A DNA stretch of 64,000 nucleotides from Dictyostelium discoideum. Its lineage: Eukaryota. The notes beneath the pieces were generated by a model. It saw only the letters and a program-made list of their open reading frames with translations. It did not search any database and was not told the DNA's origin. How positions within the stretch are numbered: the first letter of the stretch is position 1; each line of letters opens with the position of its first letter. The DNA lies in NCBI GenBank assembly GCA_000004695.1, contig CM000152.2:96001-160000 (forward strand), in the 5' to 3' direction. Of the stretch, positions 6,264 to 44,572 are shown one piece after another. The translations under genes were made by a program, and so were the position numbers.

Positions 6264-12452
<6,189 letters not shown>

Positions 12453-17090: not shown

Positions 17091-17951
17091 TTATTTATTA
17101 TTTGAAGCTAATCTATCCTTCCATTTACTTTTACGTAATTTAATTGGACGATTACCAATATATTTTCCATTCATTGTATTAAAAGCAGAGATATAATCTG
17201 ATGAACTTGAAAAAGAAACAAAACCAAAACCTCTAGATTTACCAACTTTATCAAAGATAACTTTTGCTTTTAAAAAGGTTGGATATTTTAAAAATGCTTG
17301 TCTTAACATTTCTTCGGTGACATCATTACCAAGATCACCAACGAATATACGAAAATCATTTGGATCCCATTCAGCTAAAGTATGATCAGTCCATTTTTCA
17401 CCAGCAGCTTCCATAACTATATTTGTGTTTTTTTTTGGTTCTTCCATTGTAACTTGAGGTCTAAGTGCTGCAATTGATAAATTTGTTGCTGTGGTGGTTG
17501 GATAATTAACTGAAACTTTTGGTTTGTCATTAGCTAATAAATTGATTGTATTTGCTGAATATGTAACTGCTTTTGAAGATACTACAGCTTTACTTGGTGT
17601 ATTACTATTTATTGAAGTTTTTGATACCATTTGTTTCTTTTTCATTAATGAAGGAGGTATCATTGGTTTAACACCAACATTTGTTGATGTTGTATTTGAG
17701 GTAGTAGTAGTAGTAGTAGTTGTAGTTGTTGTAGTTGGTGTAGTAGTAGTGGTTGGTGTATCATCTAATTTTCTTTTTATACCTGCTGTATTTGCACTAC
17801 TAGTAGTGGCTGGTGAAGGTGCTGTACCACCACTATTAGAATTCGAATTTGAGTTAGTCTGTGTTATAATGTTATTAGTATTTTTTGAAGAATCACCCAC
17901 ATTTTCGATTTCTTTAAAAAAGTCATCTATTTCATCATTTTCAGTCGACAT
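17091..17951 (-). CDS. RNA-binding protein, RBM42-like (C-terminal RRM)
   Basis: Single 286-aa ORF. The C-terminus (DPNDFRIFVGDLGNDVTEEMLRQAFLKYPTFLKAKVIFDKVGKSRGFGFVSFSSSSDYISAFNTMNGKYIGNRPIKLRKSKWKDR) is an RRM with RNP1 (RGFGFVSF) and RNP2 (IFVGDL). It is collinear with the RBM42 C-terminus (IFCGDLGNEV...KGYGFVSF...PIKLRKS) as recalled. Thr/Ser-rich N-terminal half. Confidence 0.8.
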   Translation of the reverse strand: MSTENDEIDDFFKEIENVGDSSKNTNNIITQTNSNSNSNSGGTAPSPATTSSANTAGIKRKLDDTPTTTTTPTTTTTTTTTTTTSNTTSTNVGVKPMIPPSLMKKKQMVSKTSINSNTPSKAVVSSKAVTYSANTINLLANDKPKVSVNYPTTTATNLSIAALRPQVTMEEPKKNTNIVMEAAGEKWTDHTLAEWDPNDFRIFVGDLGNDVTEEMLRQAFLKYPTFLKAKVIFDKVGKSRGFGFVSFSSSSDYISAFNTMNGKYIGNRPIKLRKSKWKDRLASNNK

Positions 17952-18290
17952 CTTTATTTATATGTATTTAAAAGAAAATGAAAAAAAAAAAAAATTAAAA
18001 AATTAAAAAAAAAAAAAAAAAAAAAATCGTATGGTTGTGTTAGAAAAAAAAAAAAAAACTAAAAATAAAAAATGAAAAAATAAAAATAAAAATAAAATAA
18101 TTTAATGAGAACTAAAAATAAAATGATATTATAAATATGAATATACAAACTATATACCATTTAAACGTTTATTAATTATTAATTATTTCCATTATGATAT
18201 TGATTATTGCTAATTATTATTATTATTATTTATTATTTTTTTTTAATAATATTGTACCATTATCTCTTTTTTTTTTTATTTTTTTTTTAT

Positions 18291-20176
18291 TTATTTTGAA
18301 TCTTTTAAATTTTGATCATTTAAATTTGTAAATGAAGAACTTGTACCAGATAATCTTTTTGTTTTTGATTCTTGAGCCAATTTAACTCTTCTTTCACGTA
18401 AAGACATTTTACCAGATTTCATATCACCAAGTGAATTTGATAATTCTTCAGAGGAATTACCACCATTACTACCGGATAAACTATTGTTACTACCATGGGA
18501 GGCATGATTTTCATTACCACCTATTGATTCAACATCCTTGGTATTGTATTGACCAGAGGAACGAGTGAATTTCTCTTCAATTTTTTGTTTAGTTTGTTCA
18601 GCTTTTTCAACGACATGACTCATTTGTCTATCGTTATGATCACTTAGGGTCTTTTGATATTCTACTTTTTCAATGTTAATTGCTTTAATCCATTCGGAGA
18701 GAGTATCTTTATCGGGGGCAGTAATCATCATAGAGAATGATTTTTCTTTTAGAATTTGAAGATTTAATGAACCTTCAAACTCTTTTAGCACCAATTGATG
18801 AAGGAAAATGATTTGTTCGAATTGAAGACGAATTGTTTTTTGTTTACCAAAGAAAGAGGAACCACTTGATTTATTTGGACGAGTGATTGCCAAACTATCA
18901 TTAAAGAGATAGAGTACGATTAAACTTTTCTTTCCCTTTGGTAGTACCTCATGAAATTCACCTTCCTTAATGAAACGTCTATGAGATTTAGCGAGTTGTT
19001 GAGTTTGATCACCATCTAATTTCTCTTGAATCTCTGCCAACTTCATGATACTTTCAGCCTCCTTTCTCATTTCATTCATATTCTCTGCGACACTATTAAT
19101 CTTTTCAAAGGCGATTTTCAATTGTTCATAGTCTGGATGTGTTGGCCAAGTATGACCAATCATATCTTTGATCAATAATGAGTATCTTGGAATACGTTGA
19201 ATGGGTCTAATTAAGTAATCCTCCAAACCACGTAACTTGATCTCTTCGTTTGATTCCTTAACTTTGTTCAAATAGGATTTGAATTTGGTTTGTTTCTTAC
19301 ATTCATTTAGTACACCCATCGCTTCGCTATAACTTCTACTATATTGAGAGTAGATCTTTAGGAAATTGGAAAACTTTATAAAGATATCACCAATCAATGT
19401 ATCCACTTTCCAGTCTTTAGTTCTACCCTCTAAATCGATCAATAAACGTTTATTGTATGACAAGATAATTGATACTTCACTAAAAATAGATTGAACTTCC
19501 TCTTGTGAAATAATTGGTGATCCCTTTTCAATGGCTTCTCTAAGATCCTTTAAAATATGATCATGAAGAAATGCTAAACGATTAATATATTCAACTTCTG
19601 TTTTCATAATCTCTTGTACAATTCTTTCTCTATAAGCTGAATCACGTGCTTGAATTTTCTTTCTATTTCTTTCAATCCATGCTCTTGTTGCTCTTTGAAT
19701 TCTAATTGCTGCTCTTTCTTCTAATGATAATTTTGTTGTTGTTTTAGTTGTTGTTGTTGTTGTTGTTGTTGGTGTTGGTGTTGTTACATTTGTTGTTGGT
19801 GTTGGTTGTTGTACAGTAGTTGTTGGTGTTGGTGTTGGTGTTGGTGTTGATGTTGATGTTGATGTTGATGTTGCATTTACGGAACTGGTGGAGGTAGTAG
19901 TAGTTGTTGTTGTTGTAGTTGTTGTTGATGGTGTTACAGTTGCAGTTGAAACTACAGTTGATTTAGTTGGTGAAGCAGTATCAGAAGATTTAACAACTGG
20001 TGAAGTTGCTGGTGAATTATTTAATGATACTTGATCTGGTGCTGAAGTACCCTTTACATAACCAGTAATAATTGGTGATGCTGGTTGTGATAAACTATTT
20101 CTATCAGATTTTGGTGACTATTTAATTATAATAAAAAAATAAAATAAAATATTAAAGCATAGTTAGTAAAGGCATT

Positions 20177-20210
<34 letters not shown>

Positions 20211-20400
20211 TTTGTCAAATAAGTGATTATGGTTTTGGTGGAGTGTGGCTTTGTGATTACAAACATTATCAACATCATCATCATTGATTTCAACTTTATC
20301 AACTACCTCTTCTTTATTGATTTCATTGATGCTATTATCTTTTTTAGTTGTGTTACTTTTAGGATTATCATAATTATTACTATTACTAGTACTATTACTA

Positions 20401-20434
<34 letters not shown>

Positions 20435-20812
20435 CACTGTTATTATTTTTATTATTATCTTTTAAACTTTCACTAATATCACCATAACTACTACTAAAAT
20501 GATTTAAACTTGTATTATTTATACTTCCGGCACTACTGCTGACACTACGATTTCTAGAAATCAAGTTATTACTATTTGCGCTATTATAGTGAGTTGTACT
20601 TGAATATTTCCATTGATCCAATGTTTTTGGGGGTGATTGTGCTTGTTGAGTAGGGTTGCTGTTGTTATTATTATTATTATTATTATAATTATCATTATTT
20701 TTATTTGGTTTGAATTTTATTGTACAATATGGGCTATTATATGATGTCCCATTTGATGATATAAATACTGATTTTGATTTACTGGTATTATTATTAAAAA
20801 CACTATTATTAC

Positions 20813-20893
<81 letters not shown>

Positions 20894-22239
20894 GACTGTT
20901 ACTATTATTATTATTATTATTATTATTGTTGTTATTATTATATTTTGTACTATTAAAAAAAGAAGGTTCTTTCCATTTTTTTAATATATCTTTAAATGAA
21001 AATTCCCCCAAACTATTATTATTTTTATTATTATTATTATTATTATTATTACTACTATTACTACTAATATAACTACTATTATTACTACTACTACTACTAC
21101 TACTACTATTATTATTATTATTATTATTATCTACATTTTTATTTTTAATATTAAGATCACTTTTATTATATCTTATACTACCAGTACTATTGCAACTATC
21201 ACTTAAACTACTATTACTATTTATATTGTTTCCACTATTAACAGTCTCATCCTTTATAAAGTCATCCATAGAGTTGGTAGATATTGATGAAGTTGAAAAA
21301 AGAGGTGAAGATGATAAAGAAGAGTAAGATGATGAGGGTGATGATAGTGTACTATTATTTTTACTATTATTATTACTAATACTATTATTAATAATACCAC
21401 CACTATTACTACAATTATTATTATTATTATTATTTAAATTATTATTATTTAAATTATTTACCCTTAAAACAGGACTATTATCAGGATAAAGTTGCTTTTG
21501 TGCGGCGATATGTTTGAATAATTGATTTTTAGTTTCTTCAACAGAGTTACCCTCATTTTGAGTTTGACTCTTTTTAATTACTTCTTGTCTTTTATTCTCT
21601 CTAATTGTAAATTGTGCTAACAATTGTTCTGCATGATTAATTTGATCATTTGAAAATTTCTCTTCCTCTGCATTAAGTTGTGGCCATTCAACTGAAAAAT
21701 CATAATTGCTATCTGAATTTGCAATCTATAATTTTTTTATAATAAAATTAATATAATAAAAATAAATAAAATAAAAATAAATAAAATAAAAATAAAAAAA
21801 TAAATAAGTTTTTATTTTTATTAATAGGGAAAAAAAAAAAAAAAAATAAATAAATAATAATAAAACTTACTTTACAAACAGATTCTAAACATTCAATTAC
21901 TCTTCTAATATTTGAATAAGTGATTTGATTATTAACGATATCTAATAATGTGAATCTTTTATGACGTGGTACACCCATATCAGCACATGCTTGAATAAAG
22001 AAAGATATGTTTTCATTGTATTTGAAACGAATGGTTGTTTTTGGTGTATTGGCTGTATCTGGATTGGAAATTCTTGGCATTAATCTTGGACTAATCGTAT
22101 GCATAACTTTACATAATAATACACCATCATCTAAAATCTGTGCAAAATCTTTACTTTGATCAATTTTAATATCCAATACATTCTCTATCCATTGTAATGC
22201 TGCTTTTTTCTTACAAAGAAATGCTGCTGATTTACTCAT
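18291..22239 (-). CDS. Rho guanine-nucleotide exchange factor with N-terminal CH domain, long Asn/Ser-rich linker, IQ motif, DH (RhoGEF) and PH domains. At least 3 exons
   Basis: Exon 1, 22239..21871: calponin-homology domain (AALQWIENVLDIKI...DGVLLCKVMH...), GTAAGT donor (rc 21865-21870). Exon 2 starts at 21725 after an ATTATAG acceptor and is an open 1.5-kb Asn/Ser-rich frame down to ~20261/20175. The 3' exon, 20117..18291, begins right after an AATTAAATAG acceptor (rc 20118-20127). It encodes a T/S/P-rich linker, an IQ motif (AAIRIQRATRAWIERNRKKIQARD), a DH domain (...LIRPIQRIPRYSLLIKDM...) and a PH-like domain, then stops at 18291. ORF 18291..19607 in the table is only the part downstream of an internal Met. 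The exon 2/3 junction is unresolved (see findings). Confidence 0.7.
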
Positions 22240-22870
22240 TTTATATATTTGATTTTATGTATGTATGTGTATGTATCTGTGTGTATGTGTATGTGTGTGT
22301 GTGTGAGTTAGAAAGTTTTTTTTCTTTTTTAAAAAGTGTATTTTTTTTTTTTTTTTTTTTTTTTTCTTTGTAAAAAAAAAAAAAAAAAAAAAAAGTGAGA
22401 AAGAAAATTATAAAAACTATTTATATTATTTATTTATTTAATTTTATTTATTTTTATTTATTTTTATTGTGTGTGTGTGTGTGATACTATCTTGATGGTG
22501 AGTTTTGTGAATGAGTAATGTACTGGGAGTGTGGTTTTTGAGAAAAGAATAAAAAAAAGAAAAAATTAAAAAAAAAAAAAAAATTTCTTTTTTTTATTTT
22601 TTTTATTTTTATTTTTATTTTTGGATGTGTGTGTTAAATGTGATTTTTTTTGATTTTTTTTTTAAACAAAATGAAACAAAAATAAAAATAAAAAAATAAA
22701 AAAATAAAAAAATAAAAAAATAAAAAAAATATATATATACTGAGGTTATATGTGTGATTGTGATTGAAAGTGTTGATAGTGGATTAATATTTTTTTTTTT
22801 TTTTTTTTTTTCTAAAATTTTATTATAAAAAAAAAAAAATTTAAAAAAAAAAAAAAAAATGGGTTGGTTC

Positions 22871-22907
<37 letters not shown>

Positions 22908-23292
22908 AAAATAAAAATAAAAATAGAAATAAAACTTTTACTAACAACAACAAGTTACATTTTGTTTTTAAAAAAATAAATAACAATAATTTTAATTATA
23001 ATATAATTTTTTATTATTTTTAATTTTAATTTTATTTTATTTTTATAATTTTTCGTATTATGTTTTTATTATTTGGTATCAAATAAAAAAGTTCAAACAA
23101 AAATCTAAAATACAGATAAACATTTTATAAAACCAAATTTATTTTAAATTACTTTTTATTATCGTGAAGGAAATTTAAAAAATTATTTGTCTCAAACATT
23201 TTAAAATGAGATCGTTTTTTTTTTTTTTTTAACCAACGAAATTTCAATTGAGATAATGTCGATTAAAAAAAAATTTATCACTTAATAATTTC

Positions 23293-23335
<43 letters not shown>

Positions 23336-23456
23336 CTTTTTTATTTTTTTTATTTTTTTTTTGATCTGATAGACTTAATTTTTTAAGAACAAATCATTTC
23401 AAAATGCAGTATAAATTTCAAAATAAATTTTTTTTTTTTTTTTTTAAAATTAGATC

Positions 23457-23458
23457 AA

Positions 23459-23530
<72 letters not shown>
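23457..23530. repeat. (AAAT)n microsatellite, ~18 units
   Basis: A run of aaataaat... seen directly upstream of the kinase gene ATG at 23614. Confidence 0.9.
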
Positions 23531-23539
<9 letters not shown>

Positions 23540-23613
23540 AAAAATAAATAAAAAAATAAAAAATATAAACCAGGTTTTATATAAAAGAAGGATTAGTGAA
23601 CAATTGTAATAAA

Positions 23614-26566
<2,953 letters not shown>

Positions 26567-26599
26567 TATTGTTATTATAAGATTAAAAATTCAATTTTA

Positions 26600-29057
26600 A
26601 ATTACTTTAAATTATTAATACCACTACATTATAAACATTCTCACACATATTATATAGATAGTTTTAATTTAGTAATATCTCTAGAAGATGATAATAAATT
26701 TGAATTATATTATTCAAATTCAGTTTCACCATTTTCAAGTGACGGATTTATTAGATCATTCTATGATATTGGTAAATGGGTATTTGGAAATTTAAATAAT
26801 CAAGAAGAAGAAGGTGATCAACTAGTGAAAATGAAAAGTTATTTTTCATTTTTAAGAATTTTAAGTGAATTAAGTTGGTTTTGTAATATTTTAGGTAGTG
26901 GTAATGTTCACAATTCAATTGTTTATAATGAATTAAATATTTATTATTATTTAAAAATGCTTTTACCATTATTGAATGATATTAAAATTAATGTTTTTCA
27001 TTATCAAATCCAAAATGATATATTTGCAAAAATTATCATTGGAAATACTCAATACAATATTATTAATTTAATTGAACCAAATCATATTGATGATCCATTT
27101 TCAATGGTTCAATATCATTTATATATTATGGAACTTGAAAAAATTGAAACAAGTGATGTATGTATATTACTTATTTATTTTTTATTTAATTATTTAAATA
27201 TTATATTAACATTGCCTGATATCAATTGTACATATATAGAAATTCACATGTTTAAGAAAGCAATTTAATCAAAGACCACAAAAACAATCAAAGATATTTG
27301 AAATTCCAAATCCTAATAATTCAATCGATGAAATATTAATTGAACCAACATTAATTGTTCAAGATATAAATACATCATTTCAATTTTTTAAAGTAAATGG
27401 TATAATTAAAACAATTGAAGATTTTAATCAAGAAAAAGAGTGAGTATTTGATTTGTACCATAAATTTTATTTTAAATCATTATTAATTATTAATTTTTAT
27501 TATTTTTTCTAAAAAAAAAAACAGTTATAGTAATATTATTATTTTAAGATCATTTTTATATTTCTTGCAATACCTTTTCAAGAATCCATCAAAAACAACA
27601 TTATTAGTTTTATTTGATATTAGGAAAATTGATTTTGATAATATTAATTCTTCAAACGATATTGATAATGAAAGCATACCTCAATATTTATGTTTTGATT
27701 TCTTATATTTTATCAAACAAATGTATGGAATTGATATATATTTCCAATTTGTAAGTATTTATAAAACTTTTATTAAGATCAATAATTTTTTAAATATTAT
27801 TTATTGTATTATTTATTAATTTTTTTAATTTTTAAAAAAAAAAAAAAGGAAGATTTTTTGGAAATAATATCAACTAGACCATCAATAGTATCAAATATCA
27901 TTCAATCAAATAAAAAAAAGATATTAAATGATATTATTTGCATGGATATTATTGAAAATGATATATCAATGAAAGATGTATTTTATTTACTTTCTGTTGA
28001 TATTATAAAAACAATTTCACCAACAGTAAATTTAGTTATTTATGATAAAAGAGTAATGTATTATTATTATTGTTTTTTATAATGATTTAAATTAACAAAA
28101 TTTTTAACAATCAATTTTATTATTATTATAGTACTATATTCAAAAAGAAGTTGGATCAATTTCAAAAATTAGAGAATGGAAAAAGTTTGGAATTATATCT
28201 TCACATCCAGATGCAGTGGTTTTTTTAAAATATGGTAAAAAAGATTTAAAATCAGCAATGTTGGATAATGGTAAAGTGAATGATGAAAATTATTATGGTA
28301 TTGCTGTTGAGGATTATATGAAATCTAATGAATTAAATATACTCTATTATTTATTGAGTAAACAAGAAGAACCAGATTTCACCAATATTGAAAGATATTA
28401 TTTGGAAAATGATAAAATCTATGCAATGTTTCCATATGTCAATGGTAGTTGCAATTTATCTGAAATTGATAATTTAAATGAAATGGATTTACTCAACATA
28501 TTATATCAACTTTGTTTTCAATTACATCAATTGGAAAATCTTGGTATATTTCATAGAGATGTTAAACCTGAAAATATAATTTCTCTAAGATATGGAAATG
28601 GTGGAATCGTGGTATTTATAGTTGATTTCGGTATATCACAATACAAAGGAAAACATTTAGAAAATTATTATTCACGTGATGGTACATTTGGATATCAAGC
28701 TCCAGTAAGTATTTAAATACTATATTTATCTTAAATAGTTTAAACTAATTCACATTTTTAATTTTAACATTAAAAGGAAATTTATAGAGAAGAGTTGAGA
28801 GGTGATGGTGATATTAAAACTCAAAAATATAAAATGGATGTTTTCAGTTTAGGTTGCACTATGGCTTTTTTAATTAAAAAGTTTAATATTACATCAACAT
28901 ACTTAAACGATTTCATTGATAATATGACACAACCTCATGTATGTAAATCATTTAAAAAATAAACTGAAAAAAAAAAAAAAAAAAACTAATATTTTTTTAG
29001 TATAACGATCGTTTTAGTATAGACCAATGTTTAGAAATAATAAAAAGTTGGAAAAAA
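26600..29057 (+). CDS. Protein kinase K2: ~500-aa N-terminal region followed by a canonical Ser/Thr-type kinase domain. About 7 exons. Start codon not identified, so it may be the 3' part of the same gene as K1
   Basis: An open frame begins ~30 nt after the K1 stop, without an ATG: ...NYFKLLIPLHYKHSHTYYIDSFNLVISLEDDNKFELYY...ELEKIETSD. Approximate exons: ~26600..27155, ~27240..27438, ~27517..27750, ~27853..28049, ~28130..28706, ~28776..28928, ~28998..29057. The kinase domain is in exons 5-6: VVFLKYGKK, FHRDVKPENI, DFGISQ, GTFGYQAP|EIYREE, DVFSLGCT. Last exon YNDRFSIDQCLEIIKSWKK*. ORFs 26825.., 27565.., 27804.. and 28216.. in the table are pieces of this gene. Confidence 0.6.
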
Positions 29058-29178
29058 TGATAATAACTTGGATTTATTTTTTTTTTTTTTAGTGGTGAAT
29101 ATCCAAAAATATTTATTTAATTTTAAATACCACAAATATAAAATAAAAAAAAAATAAAAAATAAAAAATAAAAAAAAA

Positions 29179-29210
<32 letters not shown>

Positions 29211-29277
29211 ATATATAAATAAATAAATAAATAATACTTGTATAATTTAAATTATTTACTTATTTGATTTTATTTGA

Positions 29278-29309
<32 letters not shown>

Positions 29310-29578
29310 TTCTATAAATAGAATACTCCAAACATCAAAAAATAAAAAATAGAAATGATTAATAAAATAAGTAAATTTTAAAAAAGGAAAAAAAATAAAA
29401 TAAATTATTTTTTTGAAGATAATTTTTTTATTTTTTTTTATTTTTTTTTTTTTAAAATTTCATTTTTTTTAATTTTTTTTTTTTTTATTTTATTTTTTTT
29501 TAATTTTTTTTTTTTTTTTTTTAATTGAAACACATTATTATTGTTGTAGTAACATATTAAGATTAATCAAATAAAAAG

Positions 29579-30281
29579 ATGTCATTAAAAATTTTAGTAC
29601 CAATTAAACGTGTTGTTGATTATGCAGTAAAGATTAGAGTAAAAGGTGATAAATCAGGTGTTGAAACAGCAAATGTAAAGATGAGTATGAACCCATTCGA
29701 TGAGATTGCAGTTGAAGAAGCAATCAGAATTAAAGAGAAAAATTTAGCAAAAGAGATCATTGCAGTTTCAATGGGACCAAAAACATCACAAGAAACAATT
29801 AGAACTGCAATTGCAATGGGTGCAGATAAAGGTATTCACGTTGAAACCACTGCTGAATTACAACCATTAAGTGTTGCAAAATTATTAAAAGAATTAGTTG
29901 ATAAAGAGAAACCAAATTTAATCATTCTTGGTAAACAAGCAATTGATGATGATTGTAATCAAACTGCTCAAATGTTAGCTGGTTTATTAAATTGGCCACA
30001 AGGTAATTTAATATATATTTAATATTATTATATAAAGTTTTTACTAATTTCAATAATAATAATTTAGCAACATTTGCATCAAAGGTTGATATTAAAGATG
30101 ATAGTGTACATGTTACTCGTGAAATTGATGGTGGTTTAGAAACACTTTCAATGAAATTACCAGCTATAATTTCATGTGACCTTAGATTAAATGAACCAAG
30201 ATATGCAAAATTACAAAATATGTAAGTATTAAATATTTATTTTATTTTTTTATTTTATTTTTAAATAAATAAATTAATTAA

Positions 30282-30330
<49 letters not shown>

Positions 30331-30515
30331 ATAATTATAGTATGAAATCTAAAAAAGCAGAATTAAAAGTTGAAACACCAGAAAGCCTTAATGTCGATAC
30401 TAATTGCAATCTTAAAATTATTTCAGTTGAAGAACCACCAAAGAGATCAGGTGGTGTAAAAGTTGAAAGCGTTGAAAATGTTGTTGAAGCACTTAAAAAG
30501 CATGCTTTAATTTAA
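29579..30515 (+). CDS. etfb: Electron transfer flavoprotein beta subunit; 3 exons (29579..30002, 30068..30221, 30341..30515)
   Basis: 250 aa, collinear with ETFB as recalled: [22 protein letters not shown]...[17 protein letters not shown]...[25 protein letters not shown]|ATFASKV...[36 protein letters not shown]|KSKKAELKV...[27 protein letters not shown]. Donors GTAATT and GTAAGT, acceptors TTTAG and TTATAG. Phases 1 and 2 are consistent. Confidence 0.9.
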
Positions 30516-30885
30516 ATTTAAAATATAAAATAAAATAAAATAAAATAAAATAAAATAAAATAAAATAAAATAAAATAATATTAGTAACATATAAAAATAA
30601 ATAATTTTTTTTTTTAACGTATTAAATTGATTTTCGTGTTGACATTCTTTGCATTTTCCCACATCATGATAATCTTTAAATAAAAATAAACAATTTCCAA
30701 TAAAAACTAAAAAAAAAAGAAAAAAAAAAAAAATATCTTGTTTTTTTTTTTTTAATTATTTTTTTTTTTTTAATTATTTTTTTTTTTTTAAATTGAGAGG
30801 TTTTTTTTTTTTTTTTTATAATTTTTAAACTTTCTTTAAAATATTTTCACACACATACATCAACAACAACCACCACAAATATACA

Positions 30886-32567
30886 ATGGATGTCGATGAC
30901 TCTTTACACCAAGATACTTTGGTAAGTTTTTTTTATTTTTTTTATTTTTTTCAATTTTTTTAATAAATAAATAAATAAATAAATAATTAATTTTTATTAT
31001 TTATTTATATATATATATGTATACTTAGGATGATAAATTTTATTCAATTTTAAAAAATATTTCATCACCAAATAGACAAGAAAGATATGAAGCAGTTCAA
31101 TGTGTTAGAAAAATTTTATCTGTTGGTATGTTTTTTTTTTTATTTTTAATTTTTTAAAATAAAATAAAATAAATAAATAATTAACCATTTCTTTTTTTTT
31201 TTTTTTTTTATTAAGAAAATAATCCACCAATTGATAGAGTTATTAGTTCAGGATTAGTACCAATTTTACATAGATATTTAGTTGATGAAACAGATACATC
31301 AATTCAATATGAAGCATCATGGGCATTAACAAATGTTGCATCAGGATCATCAGAACATACAAATTATATTGTAGAGAATGAAATTCATAAGAGTATAATT
31401 GATTTATTATCAACCAGTAATAATATTGACTTTTTAGAACAAAACATTTGGGCATTAGGTAATATCATTGGTGATTCATCACAAAATAGAGATAGTATAC
31501 TCAACGAGGGTATAGTATTACATTTGGTGGAGATATTGAAAACTCATACAAAGAAATCACTAGTTTCAAATATAAGTTGGACCATTAGTAATCTATGTCG
31601 TGGCACACCACGTCCAGCATTTAGATTCATTAAGCCACTATTACCATCCATAAAGAGTTTACTCTTGACTTGGCATAAAGAGGCGGACATCGTGTCAGAC
31701 ACGTTGTGGGCGTTATCATTCTTGACTGAGTCGACCTCTGAGGAGAAAGAGATCTTTAGTAATGTCATATCGATGGGATTGGCAGAGATCATCATTGAAA
31801 TCATTTTCAAATCCGATCAAAACAGTTGCATTATACCTGGATTTCGTACCATTGGTAATATGCTCTCGGGTCCTGACGATGTTACAGAGTTTTTGTTACA
31901 ATCTAATGTATTGAAAGTGTTTCCTAAATTTTTATCATCACCAAAAGCCTCATTGGTGAAGGAGGGTTATTGGTGTTTGTCAAATATTACCAGTGGTCCA
32001 TCGAGTCAAATTCAAAGAGTCATAGACGAGGGTTTGGTTAAAAGAGCTATTGAAACCGGTAAAAAGCCAACAATCAATATGGACACTAAGCGTGAAATCA
32101 CTTGGGCTATCATTAACGCTATCACTGGTGCTTCCAATCCACAATTGCTCTACTTGATACAGAATGATTGTCTTGATTGTTTGAAAAAGAATTATTCAAC
32201 AGCTCAAGCTCAATCAAATCTATTTCATTACTATTTGGATGGCATTACCAATATATTAAAATTGGTCAATAAATATACCAAAGAAACAAACTGTTTAAAA
32301 CTTTTCAACACTTTTATCGATGATGAATTCTTTGGTACTTTAATTGACGATATCAATTCTTGTTCACCAGAATTTGTCGAAAATTACTCGTCAATCAATT
32401 CTGCACATTGCGAGTTGAAAAAAGTCGTTAAACATATTATTGAAATTAAAAATTCAAAAGGTGAAAATGTAAATGAAGTTTTTTTAAAAAATGGTTTTGA
32501 AAATATAAAAAAAAGTATTGAATTTGAATCTGATTTAGATGAGGATGAAATTGATTGTGAATCTGTC

Positions 32568-32601
<34 letters not shown>

Positions 32602-32657
32602 CTTCTGATTATGAAGATGATATTGCTAAATTAAACGAAATGGATCTTAATGAATAA
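30886..32657 (+). CDS. Importin-alpha-like armadillo-repeat protein without a recognisable N-terminal IBB domain; 3 exons (30886..30921, 31029..31125, 31216..32657)
   Basis: ARM-repeat signatures typical of karyopherin-alpha: YEASWALTNVASGSSEHTNYIV, NIWALGNIIGDSSQNRD, SNISWTISNLCRG, LWALSFLTE. The N-terminus (MDVDDSLHQDTL|DDKFYSILKNISSPNRQERYEAVQCVRKILSV|ENNPPIDRV...) lacks the basic IBB segment. Acidic poly-E C-terminus. Confidence 0.7.
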
Positions 32658-32716
32658 AAAATAAAATAAAATAAAATAAAATAAAATAAATAAATAAAAT
32701 TCAATTGGAAAACTAT

Positions 32717-34345: not shown

Positions 34346-44572
<10,227 letters not shown>

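Follow-up and report, generated by a model that had tools for sequence, protein, structure and literature searches.

The stretch of Dictyostelium discoideum AX4 DNA that was analysed (64,000 nucleotides, hereafter the window) carries two protein kinase units in tandem, here referred to as K1, which starts at the ATG at 23614 and ends at a TGA (26564–26566), and K2, whose last sense codon ends at 29057. As judged from the sequence, K1 and K2 very probably form a single 14-exon gene on the forward strand, spanning 23614–29060 and encoding a protein of 1449 aa (Table 1). The predicted protein consists of an N-terminal ePK domain, a linker of ~920 aa and a C-terminal ePK domain. An earlier, sequence-only reading of this DNA had raised the possibility of a single dual-kinase gene with the K1 domain at the N-terminus and the K2 domain at the C-terminus, an order that the Pfam matches (see below) bear out; the ~1,600 aa that it expected for the fused protein become 1449 with the exon model. 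The linker is lineage-specific. Its exon 5 portion contains a tract of 35 Asn (24959–25060) as well as a Thr/Pro-rich tract, and a full-library HMMER search with it returned only weak matches centred on poly-Asn, i.e., low-complexity noise, and no informative homologues. The least conserved exon is exon 14, with ~80% identity to the orthologues. Scans of the window for tRNAs and Rfam families gave no matches.

Table 1. Features of the K1–K2 locus, in window coordinates.
Feature	Position	Strand	Remarks
(AAAT)n array, 26 copies	23462–23565		true 5′ intergenic region; flank 91% AT
Whole coding region	23614–29060	+	predicted; 14 exons, 13 introns, 1449 aa; architecture matches orthologue annotation (P0001, P0006)
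Exon 1	23614–23724	+	start of K1 N-lobe, no Gly-rich loop; donor GTAATA
Exon 2	23799–24034	+	K1 β3 Lys in FICKEI, and αC helix
Exon 3	24097–24191	+	K1, ends ...HRDIKP
Exon 4	24304–24443	+	K1: DNILIK...DLG...YIAP
Exon 5	24544–25782	+	K1 C-lobe, then linker
Exon 6	25870–26136	+	linker
Exon 7	26219–26555	+	linker; ends ...LKSIYE plus first base of a Tyr codon
Junction intron	26556–26657	+	102 nt, phase 1, GTTTGT...TATAG, 83% AT
In-frame TGA	26564–26566	+	8 nt past the donor, within the junction intron; kept in L001, L002 and L005
Exon 8	26658–27157	+	linker; SFYDIGKWVFG motif upstream of ATG 26831
Exon 9	27240–27439	+	linker
Exon 10	27525–27750	+	linker; acceptor 27525 backed by residue numbering in PMC1420674
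Exon 11	27849–28052	+	linker
Exon 12	28132–28704	+	K2 kinase domain: divergent N-lobe, HRDVKPEN, DFG, ...YQAP
Exon 13	28777–28938	+	K2 C-lobe from the E of APE on
Exon 14	29001–29060	+	K2 C-terminus; TGA stop at 29058–29060
(AAAT)n array, 24.5 copies	29141–29234		true 3′ intergenic region; flank 92% AT, 19 AATAAA motifs

The region between the two units is open in frame 1 from 26219 to 27268 apart from one stop, the TGA of K1. K2 is read in the frame of the last K1 exon, and its first in-frame ATG (26831) follows 88 codons after this TGA. The K2 frame had been thought to open 30 nt after the K1 stop and to lack an ATG for ~75 codons; the absence of an ATG was seen correctly, but the distance is 0 nt, in the same frame, and the stretch measures 88 codons. 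The interval 26567–26830 remained free of in-frame stops in only 2 of 20,000 shuffles, so its openness is more than chance would give. L005, an independent genomic contig from SRR26869258, has the same sequence throughout the junction, so the TGA is not an error of the reference. The AT content of 26567–26830 is 78.8%, compared with 74–83% in the exons and 91–92% in the intergenic flanks, the longest run of A/T only is 15 nt in the gap versus 103–113 nt in the flanks, and AATAAA occurs once in the gap (26693) as opposed to 19 times in the flank. Moreover, (AAAT)n arrays are found on both sides of the whole unit and none between K1 and K2. The gap is thus exon-like rather than intergenic in composition, which is evidence for one gene.

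The alternative that K1 and K2 are two separate genes, with K1 stopping at the TGA (26566) and K2 being transcribed independently from the ATG at 26831, would account for the presence of a stop codon followed by an in-frame ATG, and for the lone AATAAA at 26693. It is nevertheless very unlikely, as the gap is devoid of intergenic-type sequence and the ATG is preceded by conserved coding sequence (SFYDIGKWVFG, which reads SFFDIGAWVYG in a paralogue). Furthermore, every orthologue and paralogue is one protein of 1356–1429 aa, the paralogues have an intron at the corresponding position, and the curated model of 2006 is dual-domain (Goldberg et al. 2006, PLoS Genet 2:e38, PMC1420674). The fallback offered by the sequence-only reading, namely that a first exon of K2 had been missed, found no support.

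Under the single-gene model, splicing of 26556–26657 would join ...LKSIYE to YSFNLVIS... and give the 1449-aa protein, the apparent K1 stop then lying 8 nt inside a phase-1 spliceosomal intron of 102 nt. It is because this intron has, in AX4, a length that is a multiple of three and a single in-frame stop that the locus resembled two abutting ORFs; the combination is a coincidence. A weak donor just before the stop, either GTATTG or GTTTGT, had been proposed together with an AT-rich intron of ~110 nt. Both donor sequences are present and the intron is AT-rich, but the donor is predicted to be GTTTGT rather than GTATTG and the length is 102 nt. The motif E-Y-x-[FY]-N across the junction is kept in the paralogues, and only the GTTTGT model reproduces it; likewise, the published start of the second kinase domain (domain b) at residue 1187 (PMC1420674) is reproduced only with the 102-nt intron. 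Other candidates were rejected: an intron beginning with GTATTG (26560–26661) yields ...YEC/FFNL and breaks the conserved motif, while one beginning with GTCCAA (26498–26581) and variants of 117, 132 and 168 nt disagree with the orthologue proteins or the residue numbering of PMC1420674. On sequence comparison, the interval begins with GT and ends with AG, lies at a position and in a phase that homologues share, and evolves in a non-coding manner, as expected of a spliceosomal GT-AG intron. What speaks against the model is the poor donor, the GC content (see below), and the substitution identity of the intron to its orthologues, which at 94% is closer to that of the exons (95–98%) than to that of most other introns (73–98%). 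A search of Logan contigs with the short ORF ending at the TGA recovered unspliced genomic contigs only.

Two other, diverged D. discoideum assemblies have one orthologue each, P0001 (1421 aa) and P0006 (1429 aa), which aligns with the fused model over its entire length (100%) and reads ...SIYE/YSFNL... across the junction, the same splice being annotated in each. By exact exon mapping, the orthologous intron measures 102 nt in L001 and 97 nt in L002, with the GTTTGT donor conserved; given the length of 97 nt, only splicing can bring the two halves of L002 into one frame. The interval contains one, four and three in-frame stops in AX4, L001 and L002, respectively, and indels that are not multiples of three occur in the junction intron, whereas those in the exons are multiples of three only. 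At a dS of ~0.10, dN/dS is 0.28–0.35 for the K1 half and 0.27–0.28 for the K2 half; both halves are under purifying selection.

These comparisons also bear on the notion that translational readthrough of the TGA links K1 and K2 without splicing. The arrangement that suggests it, two halves in one frame with a single stop between them, is peculiar to AX4: readthrough would have to pass four stops in L001, and in L002 three stops plus the frame-shifting 97 nt, yet the downstream half is conserved there. Readthrough thus has a negligible probability and appears effectively refuted by the comparative data.

A further possibility is that a nonsense mutation created the TGA in a once continuous coding sequence and that a bogus intron masks it, so that the locus would be a pseudogene or truncated gene. 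Goldberg et al. described 15 kinase pseudogenes masked in this way (PMC1420674), and the K1–K2 locus resembles them in having a predicted intron that would seem open but for an in-frame stop. Some properties of the junction intron could be taken in the same sense: in AX4 all of its 102 nt stay in frame, with the single TGA as the only interruption, the donor is non-consensus, and its GC content of ~17% is slightly over the “<15% GC” rule of thumb given in PMC1420674. Against this stand the paralogues, which carry an intron at the site and not 34 extra residues, the orthologous introns, with their frameshifting indels (97 nt in L002) and 3–4 stops, and the two flanking halves, both of which are intact and under purifying selection (dN/dS ~0.3). 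Unlike in the masked pseudogenes, therefore, the intron position is ancestral and the interval is non-coding in relatives. The authors of the 2006 survey had themselves screened for the masking artefact, yet retained this gene as functional, with its two domains (PMC1420674). A masked pseudogene is accordingly highly improbable.

The paralogues belong to a different locus. DDB_G0293292 (DDB0219988, P0004) is 34% identical to the query over 98% of the length of the latter (E = 2.9e-150), and together with its D. cf. discoideum / D. citrinum counterparts P0002 (L003) and P0003 (L004), likewise ~34% identical, it forms a group with a like two-kinase architecture (1356–1417 aa) that aligns over 98–99% of the 1449-aa protein. 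Most intron positions are common to both loci (11 of 13 in the case of P0002), although the paralogues lack introns 6 and 12 of the 1449-aa gene. In P0002 and P0003 an intron lies at the alignment column of the junction and in the same phase, 1, where it starts with the canonical donors GTAAGT and GTAATG. A further difference concerns the DFG motif: the paralogues have DMG in K1 and DFN or DFS in K2, as opposed to DLG and DFG in the 1449-aa protein.

The 1449-aa protein is DDB0230037, a dual-domain kinase of the Other/Dicty9 family already catalogued in 2006, so that the finding, though correct, is no novelty. A third member of the family is DDB0231281. Table S2 of that survey lists DDB0230037 as dual-domain (Dicty9/Dicty9) in the Dictyostelium-specific Other/Dicty9 family (PMC1420674; also Figs 5 and S1), with the motifs FICK/VFLK, HRD.../HRDVKPEN and DLG/DFG, and the tree in the paper has both domains arising from duplication within one kinase class. 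Over the ~400 aa of the Table S2 sequence that were compared, through the 35-Asn tract, the translation of the window is identical except for two N-terminal splice-junction differences. Membership in Other/Dicty9 is borne out by the authors’ listing, the two ePK domains in one polypeptide and the full-length homology to P0004. A literature search by the identifiers DDB_G0293292 and DDB0230037 retrieved no further papers. Exact look-ups of K1 alone, of K2 from the ATG at 26831, of the fused model and of four reconstructions of the 2006 model found no match in the protein collection searched, from which the AX4 protein itself is absent.

The two differences lie at the acceptors of introns 2 and 3, which the 2006 model places at 24076 and 24337 (PMC1420674) and the present one at 24097 and 24304. 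The 2006 acceptors insert TNKKCFS, delete NILIKSVKLKD and thereby drop Asn171, whereas those at 24097 and 24304 are backed by orthologues and paralogues and restore HRDIKPDN. The remark that the N-terminal domain “lacks N171” (PMC1420674) is thus an artefact of the splice model, and with HRDIKPDN restored, K1 looks likelier to be active than was recorded in 2006. Beyond such annotation hygiene the locus has little importance, although it does teach that one gene can pass for two adjoining ORFs when an intron is in frame and nearly open, and that such loci can be resolved without transcript data by comparing orthologues and paralogues.

Both halves match Pfam PF00069 (Pkinase), K1 with E = 1.8e-19 and K2 with E = 7.1e-19. 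The alignment confirms the two traits for which K1 had been called pseudokinase-like, namely the lack of a Gly-rich loop and DLG instead of DFG. That label is not supported, given that the β3 Lys (FICK), the αC Glu, HRDIKPDN, the Asp of DLG, and APD are all present in K1 and conserved in 6 of 6 family members; the Gly-rich loop alone is missing. K2, on the other hand, had been described as canonical, which is true of its C-lobe motifs only (HRDVKPEN, DFG, APE). Its Pfam match begins at profile position 56 of 263, its N-lobe is non-canonical and more divergent than that of K1, and its proposed β3 Lys is not conserved. An AlphaFold2 model of the K2 N-lobe up to APE (exon 12), built from a 5-sequence alignment, had a mean pLDDT of 36 and was unusable. 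The two domains are only 25% identical to each other (E = 1e-7) and have in common a phase-0 intron after AP, before the E or D. Matches in the PDB were weak and mixed (E ~1e-9 to 1e-12), being to AGC, ULK and CDPK kinases for K1 and to IRE1 and RSK for K2. From their motifs, both domains are predicted to be active kinases with atypical ATP-binding loops, with possible intramolecular regulation of one by the other.

The sequence-only reading had likened the arrangement to the pseudokinase–kinase pair of the JAKs. There is a likeness in that one protein contains two kinase-like domains, but in JAKs JH2 adjoins JH1, FERM and SH2 domains are present, and JH2 is without key catalytic residues. In DDB0230037, by contrast, K1 keeps the Lys, the HRD, the Asn and the DxG Asp, the domains are ~920 aa apart, and Pfam on the fused protein found kinase domains only and neither FERM nor SH2, so the comparison is not supported. 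RSK and MSK are closer in having two ePK domains per polypeptide, both with catalytic-loop residues, and by analogy the retention of these residues in both domains would make intramolecular regulation a plausible working model. However, RSK combines an N-terminal AGC with a C-terminal CAMK domain over a short linker, whereas both domains of DDB0230037 are classed as Other/Dicty9 and lie far apart. The PDB matches to RSK are weak (E ~1e-9), and nothing points to orthology.

A by-product of the analysis is that the junction donor is unusually weak yet conserved. As a donor GTTTGT is poor: of the 62 family introns that were mapped, three have T at +3, and all three are the junction intron, each from a different lineage at a dS of ~0.10. 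Such a donor might be inefficient, with partial retention of the intron producing, beside the 1449-aa kinase, an 811-aa isoform with K1 alone, which might be regulated or subject to NMD. Partial retention would be compatible with, and additional to, the single-gene explanation. The TGA just downstream of the donor is kept in all three lineages, and the substitution rate of the intron is low for an intron (94% identity); but at 5–8% divergence a conserved TGA and six conserved donor bases are weak evidence, and the paralogues have canonical donors at the junction site. Retention at this intron is consequently possible but unlikely, and the canonical paralogue donors mean that there is no family-wide switch. 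That the conserved GTTTGT and the TGA 8 nt downstream constitute a regulated intron-retention switch is a slightly more doubtful proposal. If it were true, efficient splicing would lead to the 1449-aa dual kinase and retention to the 811-aa N-terminal kinase or an NMD target, and the ratio of single- to dual-domain forms would be tuned in growth or development.

The two kinase units of the window, K1 upstream and K2 downstream, lie in DNA of a kind typical of Dictyostelium, with short AT-rich GT–AG introns, poly-Asn and poly-Gln tracts and ~20% GC across the window. The sequence-only reading had described tandem units in which the K1 stop is followed by a K2 frame lacking an ATG, and this was confirmed with small numerical corrections: the K2 frame is that of the last apparent K1 exon, which the TGA closes, and it opens 0 nt after this stop, with the first in-frame ATG lying 88 codons downstream. 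Between 26219 and 27268 the TGA is the only stop in frame 1, and the 88-codon stretch after it was stop-free in only 2 of 20,000 shuffles. An independent genomic contig (L005, from SRR26869258) is identical to the window across the junction, which rules out a reference error as the source of the TGA.

Conventional introns of 62–112 nt are readable throughout the gene region, with the donors GTAAGT, GTAATA, GTAATT, GTATGT, GTATGC, GTGAGT and GTAATG. Several GT...AG intervals would remove the TGA and keep the frame open, the best of which (the junction intron, 102 nt, phase 1) gives a spliced K1+K2 product of 1449 aa. With this fused protein as the query, a homologue search returned the orthologue P0001 (D. 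discoideum ACTFIW_003226, 1421 aa, 92% identity, 100% query coverage), and a second orthologue, P0006 (a third D. discoideum assembly, 1429 aa), belongs to the 90% cluster of P0001; both read ...LKSIYE/YSFNL... across the junction (slash at the splice site), the exact product of splicing out the junction intron. At the loci of the two orthologues, L001 and L002, synteny with the window includes the ETF-β gene downstream, and identity to it is ~91–92% over the whole neighbourhood (17600–32700; dS ~0.10).

Positions of features in the window
Feature	Position	Strand	Remark
Long uninterrupted ORF	6264-12452	+	2062 aa
(AAAT)n array	23462-23565		~25 copies; just upstream of the start ATG
Start ATG of the kinase-containing gene	23614	+	
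Phase-0 intron in the K1 domain	24443/24544		
Perfect trinucleotide array	24959-25060		34 copies in AX4
Intron 6	26137-26218		82 nt in all three lineages
Junction intron	26556-26657	+	GTTTGT at 26556 to TATAG at 26657
Apparent K1 stop, TGA	26564-26566		
First in-frame ATG after the TGA	26831		
Phase-0 intron in the K2 domain	28704/28777		
Exon 14	29001-29060		6-nt length difference
(AAAT)n array	29141-29234		~25 copies; just downstream of the gene's stop
Gene for an ETF β-subunit-like product	29579-30500		immediately downstream
Long uninterrupted ORF	35798-44572	+	2924 aa

When each protein was mapped exactly onto its locus, the junction intron measured 102 nt for L001 and 97 nt for L002, a length that puts the L002 halves in different frames if it is not spliced out. 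In a three-way alignment the intron carries indels that do not keep to multiples of three (+1, -1, -1, +7 and -12) and in-frame stops (one in the window, four in L001, three in L002); exon length differences among the three are multiples of three in every case. With dS ~0.10, dN/dS was 0.28–0.35 for the K1 half and 0.27–0.28 for the K2 half, and both are therefore maintained as coding sequence. Three paralogues of 1356–1417 aa, P0002 (D. cf. discoideum), P0003 (D. citrinum) and P0004 (AX4 DDB_G0293292), align with the fused protein at ~34% identity and 98–99% query coverage. In P0002, 11 introns coincide with introns among the 13 of the window's gene, and one stands at the matching column (866) of the family protein alignment in the same phase 1 (donor GTAAGT, 106 nt); P0003 also has one at the junction site (...NYSE/YQYNLIIS, phase 1, GTAATG, 73 nt).

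On these comparative data alone, the proposal of a single gene joined by splicing just before the K1 stop is structurally correct. Two donors had been suggested, and the E-Y-x-[FY]-N motif conserved across the junction selects GTTTGT, which is kept in all three lineages (window, L001, L002), over GTATTG. That K1 and K2 are two genes is very unlikely: the orthologue junction, the intron indels and stops, the dN/dS values and the paralogue introns together oppose it, as does SFYDIGKWVFG, a motif that the paralogues also conserve and that sits upstream of the first in-frame ATG, so that K2 cannot be an independent ORF. Readthrough of the TGA was excluded by the combined orthologue, paralogue, indel and stop, selection and motif data. 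Partial retention of the junction intron would give an 811-aa K1-only product; GTTTGT is the sole donor with T at +3 among 62 mapped family introns, and conserved, which speaks for such retention, and we regard it as unlikely.

The stretch from the TGA to the first ATG is 78.8% AT, resembling the exons (74–83%), compared with 91–92% for the true intergenic flanks of the pair. A/T-only runs measure 15 nt in the junction stretch versus 103–113 nt in those flanks, and the junction stretch has one AATAAA motif versus 19 in true intergenic DNA. No (AAAT)n array occurs between K1 and K2, unlike both flanks of the pair, where the two bracketing arrays are near-identical.

The Dictyostelium kinome of Goldberg et al. 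2006 (PMC1420674) named the Other/Dicty9 family, all three members of which are dual-domain, and ascribed it to duplication of one kinase-domain class. Its Table S2 lists DDB0230037 as dual-domain, Dicty9/Dicty9, and the portion of this sequence compared here matches the window translation through the 35-Asn tract, save at two N-terminal splice junctions; the match identifies the window as AX4. In Figure S1 of that paper, domain b begins with residue 1187 (EVGSIS...), a numbering reproduced only by the 102-nt junction intron after the two N-terminal splice differences are applied; the 2006 curation therefore already had one gene with two kinase domains, and the window's gene is a rediscovered catalogued gene, already known. 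The same study explicitly screened for bogus introns masking stop codons and left this gene out of its 15 pseudogenes, which, together with the orthologue junction, the intron indels and stops, dN/dS and the paralogue introns, makes a masked pseudogene very unlikely. Within 24035–24443, the 2006 model uses acceptors 24076 (intron 2) and 24337 (intron 3), which insert TNKKCFS and delete NILIKSVKLKD. The P0001 and P0006 annotations have acceptors 24097 and 24304, which agree with the paralogues' intron position and restore the canonical catalytic loop HRDIKPDN; the published remark "lacks N171" arose because acceptor 24337 was chosen. In a collection of 5.8 billion protein sequences, the AX4 protein of this gene was not found, with the AX4 paralogue DDB_G0293292 present, and the third Dicty9 member, DDB0231281, was not returned.

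Each half contains a Pfam Pkinase domain (E = 1.8e-19 and 7.1e-19). K1 had been called pseudokinase-like, which was not supported, and K2 canonical, which applies to its C-lobe motifs only. In K1, all six family sequences keep the β3 Lys ([FY]-x-C-K), the αC Glu, HRDIKP[DE]N, D[LM]G and AP[DE], the Gly-rich loop being the sole kinase feature absent. K2 conserves HRDxKPxN, DF[G/N/S], APE and an αC Glu; its Pfam match does not begin until position 56 of the 263-position profile, and its proposed lysine (VFLK) is Asp in the paralogues. The K2 N-lobe is more divergent than that of K1, and neither domain is a clear pseudokinase. The suggested likeness to JAK fails, since Pfam found no FERM or SH2 domain in the fused protein and the kinase domains are ~920 aa apart. 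The linker had no homologues detectable outside the family by homology search, and structure prediction for K2 gave a pLDDT of 36, too low for use. The two domains share 25% identity over 169 aa (E = 1e-7) and a phase-0 intron between AP and E/D, present also in the paralogues' N-terminal domain; this intron is possibly a trace of internal duplication, and the two features are compatible with the ancient duplication put forward in the 2006 paper but do not prove it. As a working model, the single polypeptide would have two atypical, probably active kinase domains, with possible intramolecular regulation.

The assemblies that hold L001 and L002 (GCA_054859355.1 and GCA_054859385.1) are both labelled Dictyostelium discoideum, and the two loci are ~95–96% identical to each other. 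They may represent cryptic lineages, because their divergence from AX4 far exceeds that expected among strains of one species. No interval of the gene has diverged more than intron 6, at only 73–74% identity, and exon 14 is the gene's least conserved part (~80% identity), the C-terminus reading ...LEIIKSWKK in AX4 versus ...LKIFIIN in the other lineages. The trinucleotide array encodes 35 consecutive Asn in AX4; P0001 has only DDNNSGGGG at this site and P0006 a shorter interrupted run, so repeat length differs greatly between lineages inside a constrained gene. Pfam ETF was recorded on the syntenic downstream gene in L001 and L002, which is followed by an ARM-repeat (ARMC5-like) gene. Elsewhere in the window, the first of the two very long ORFs coincides with a block of ~35% GC.
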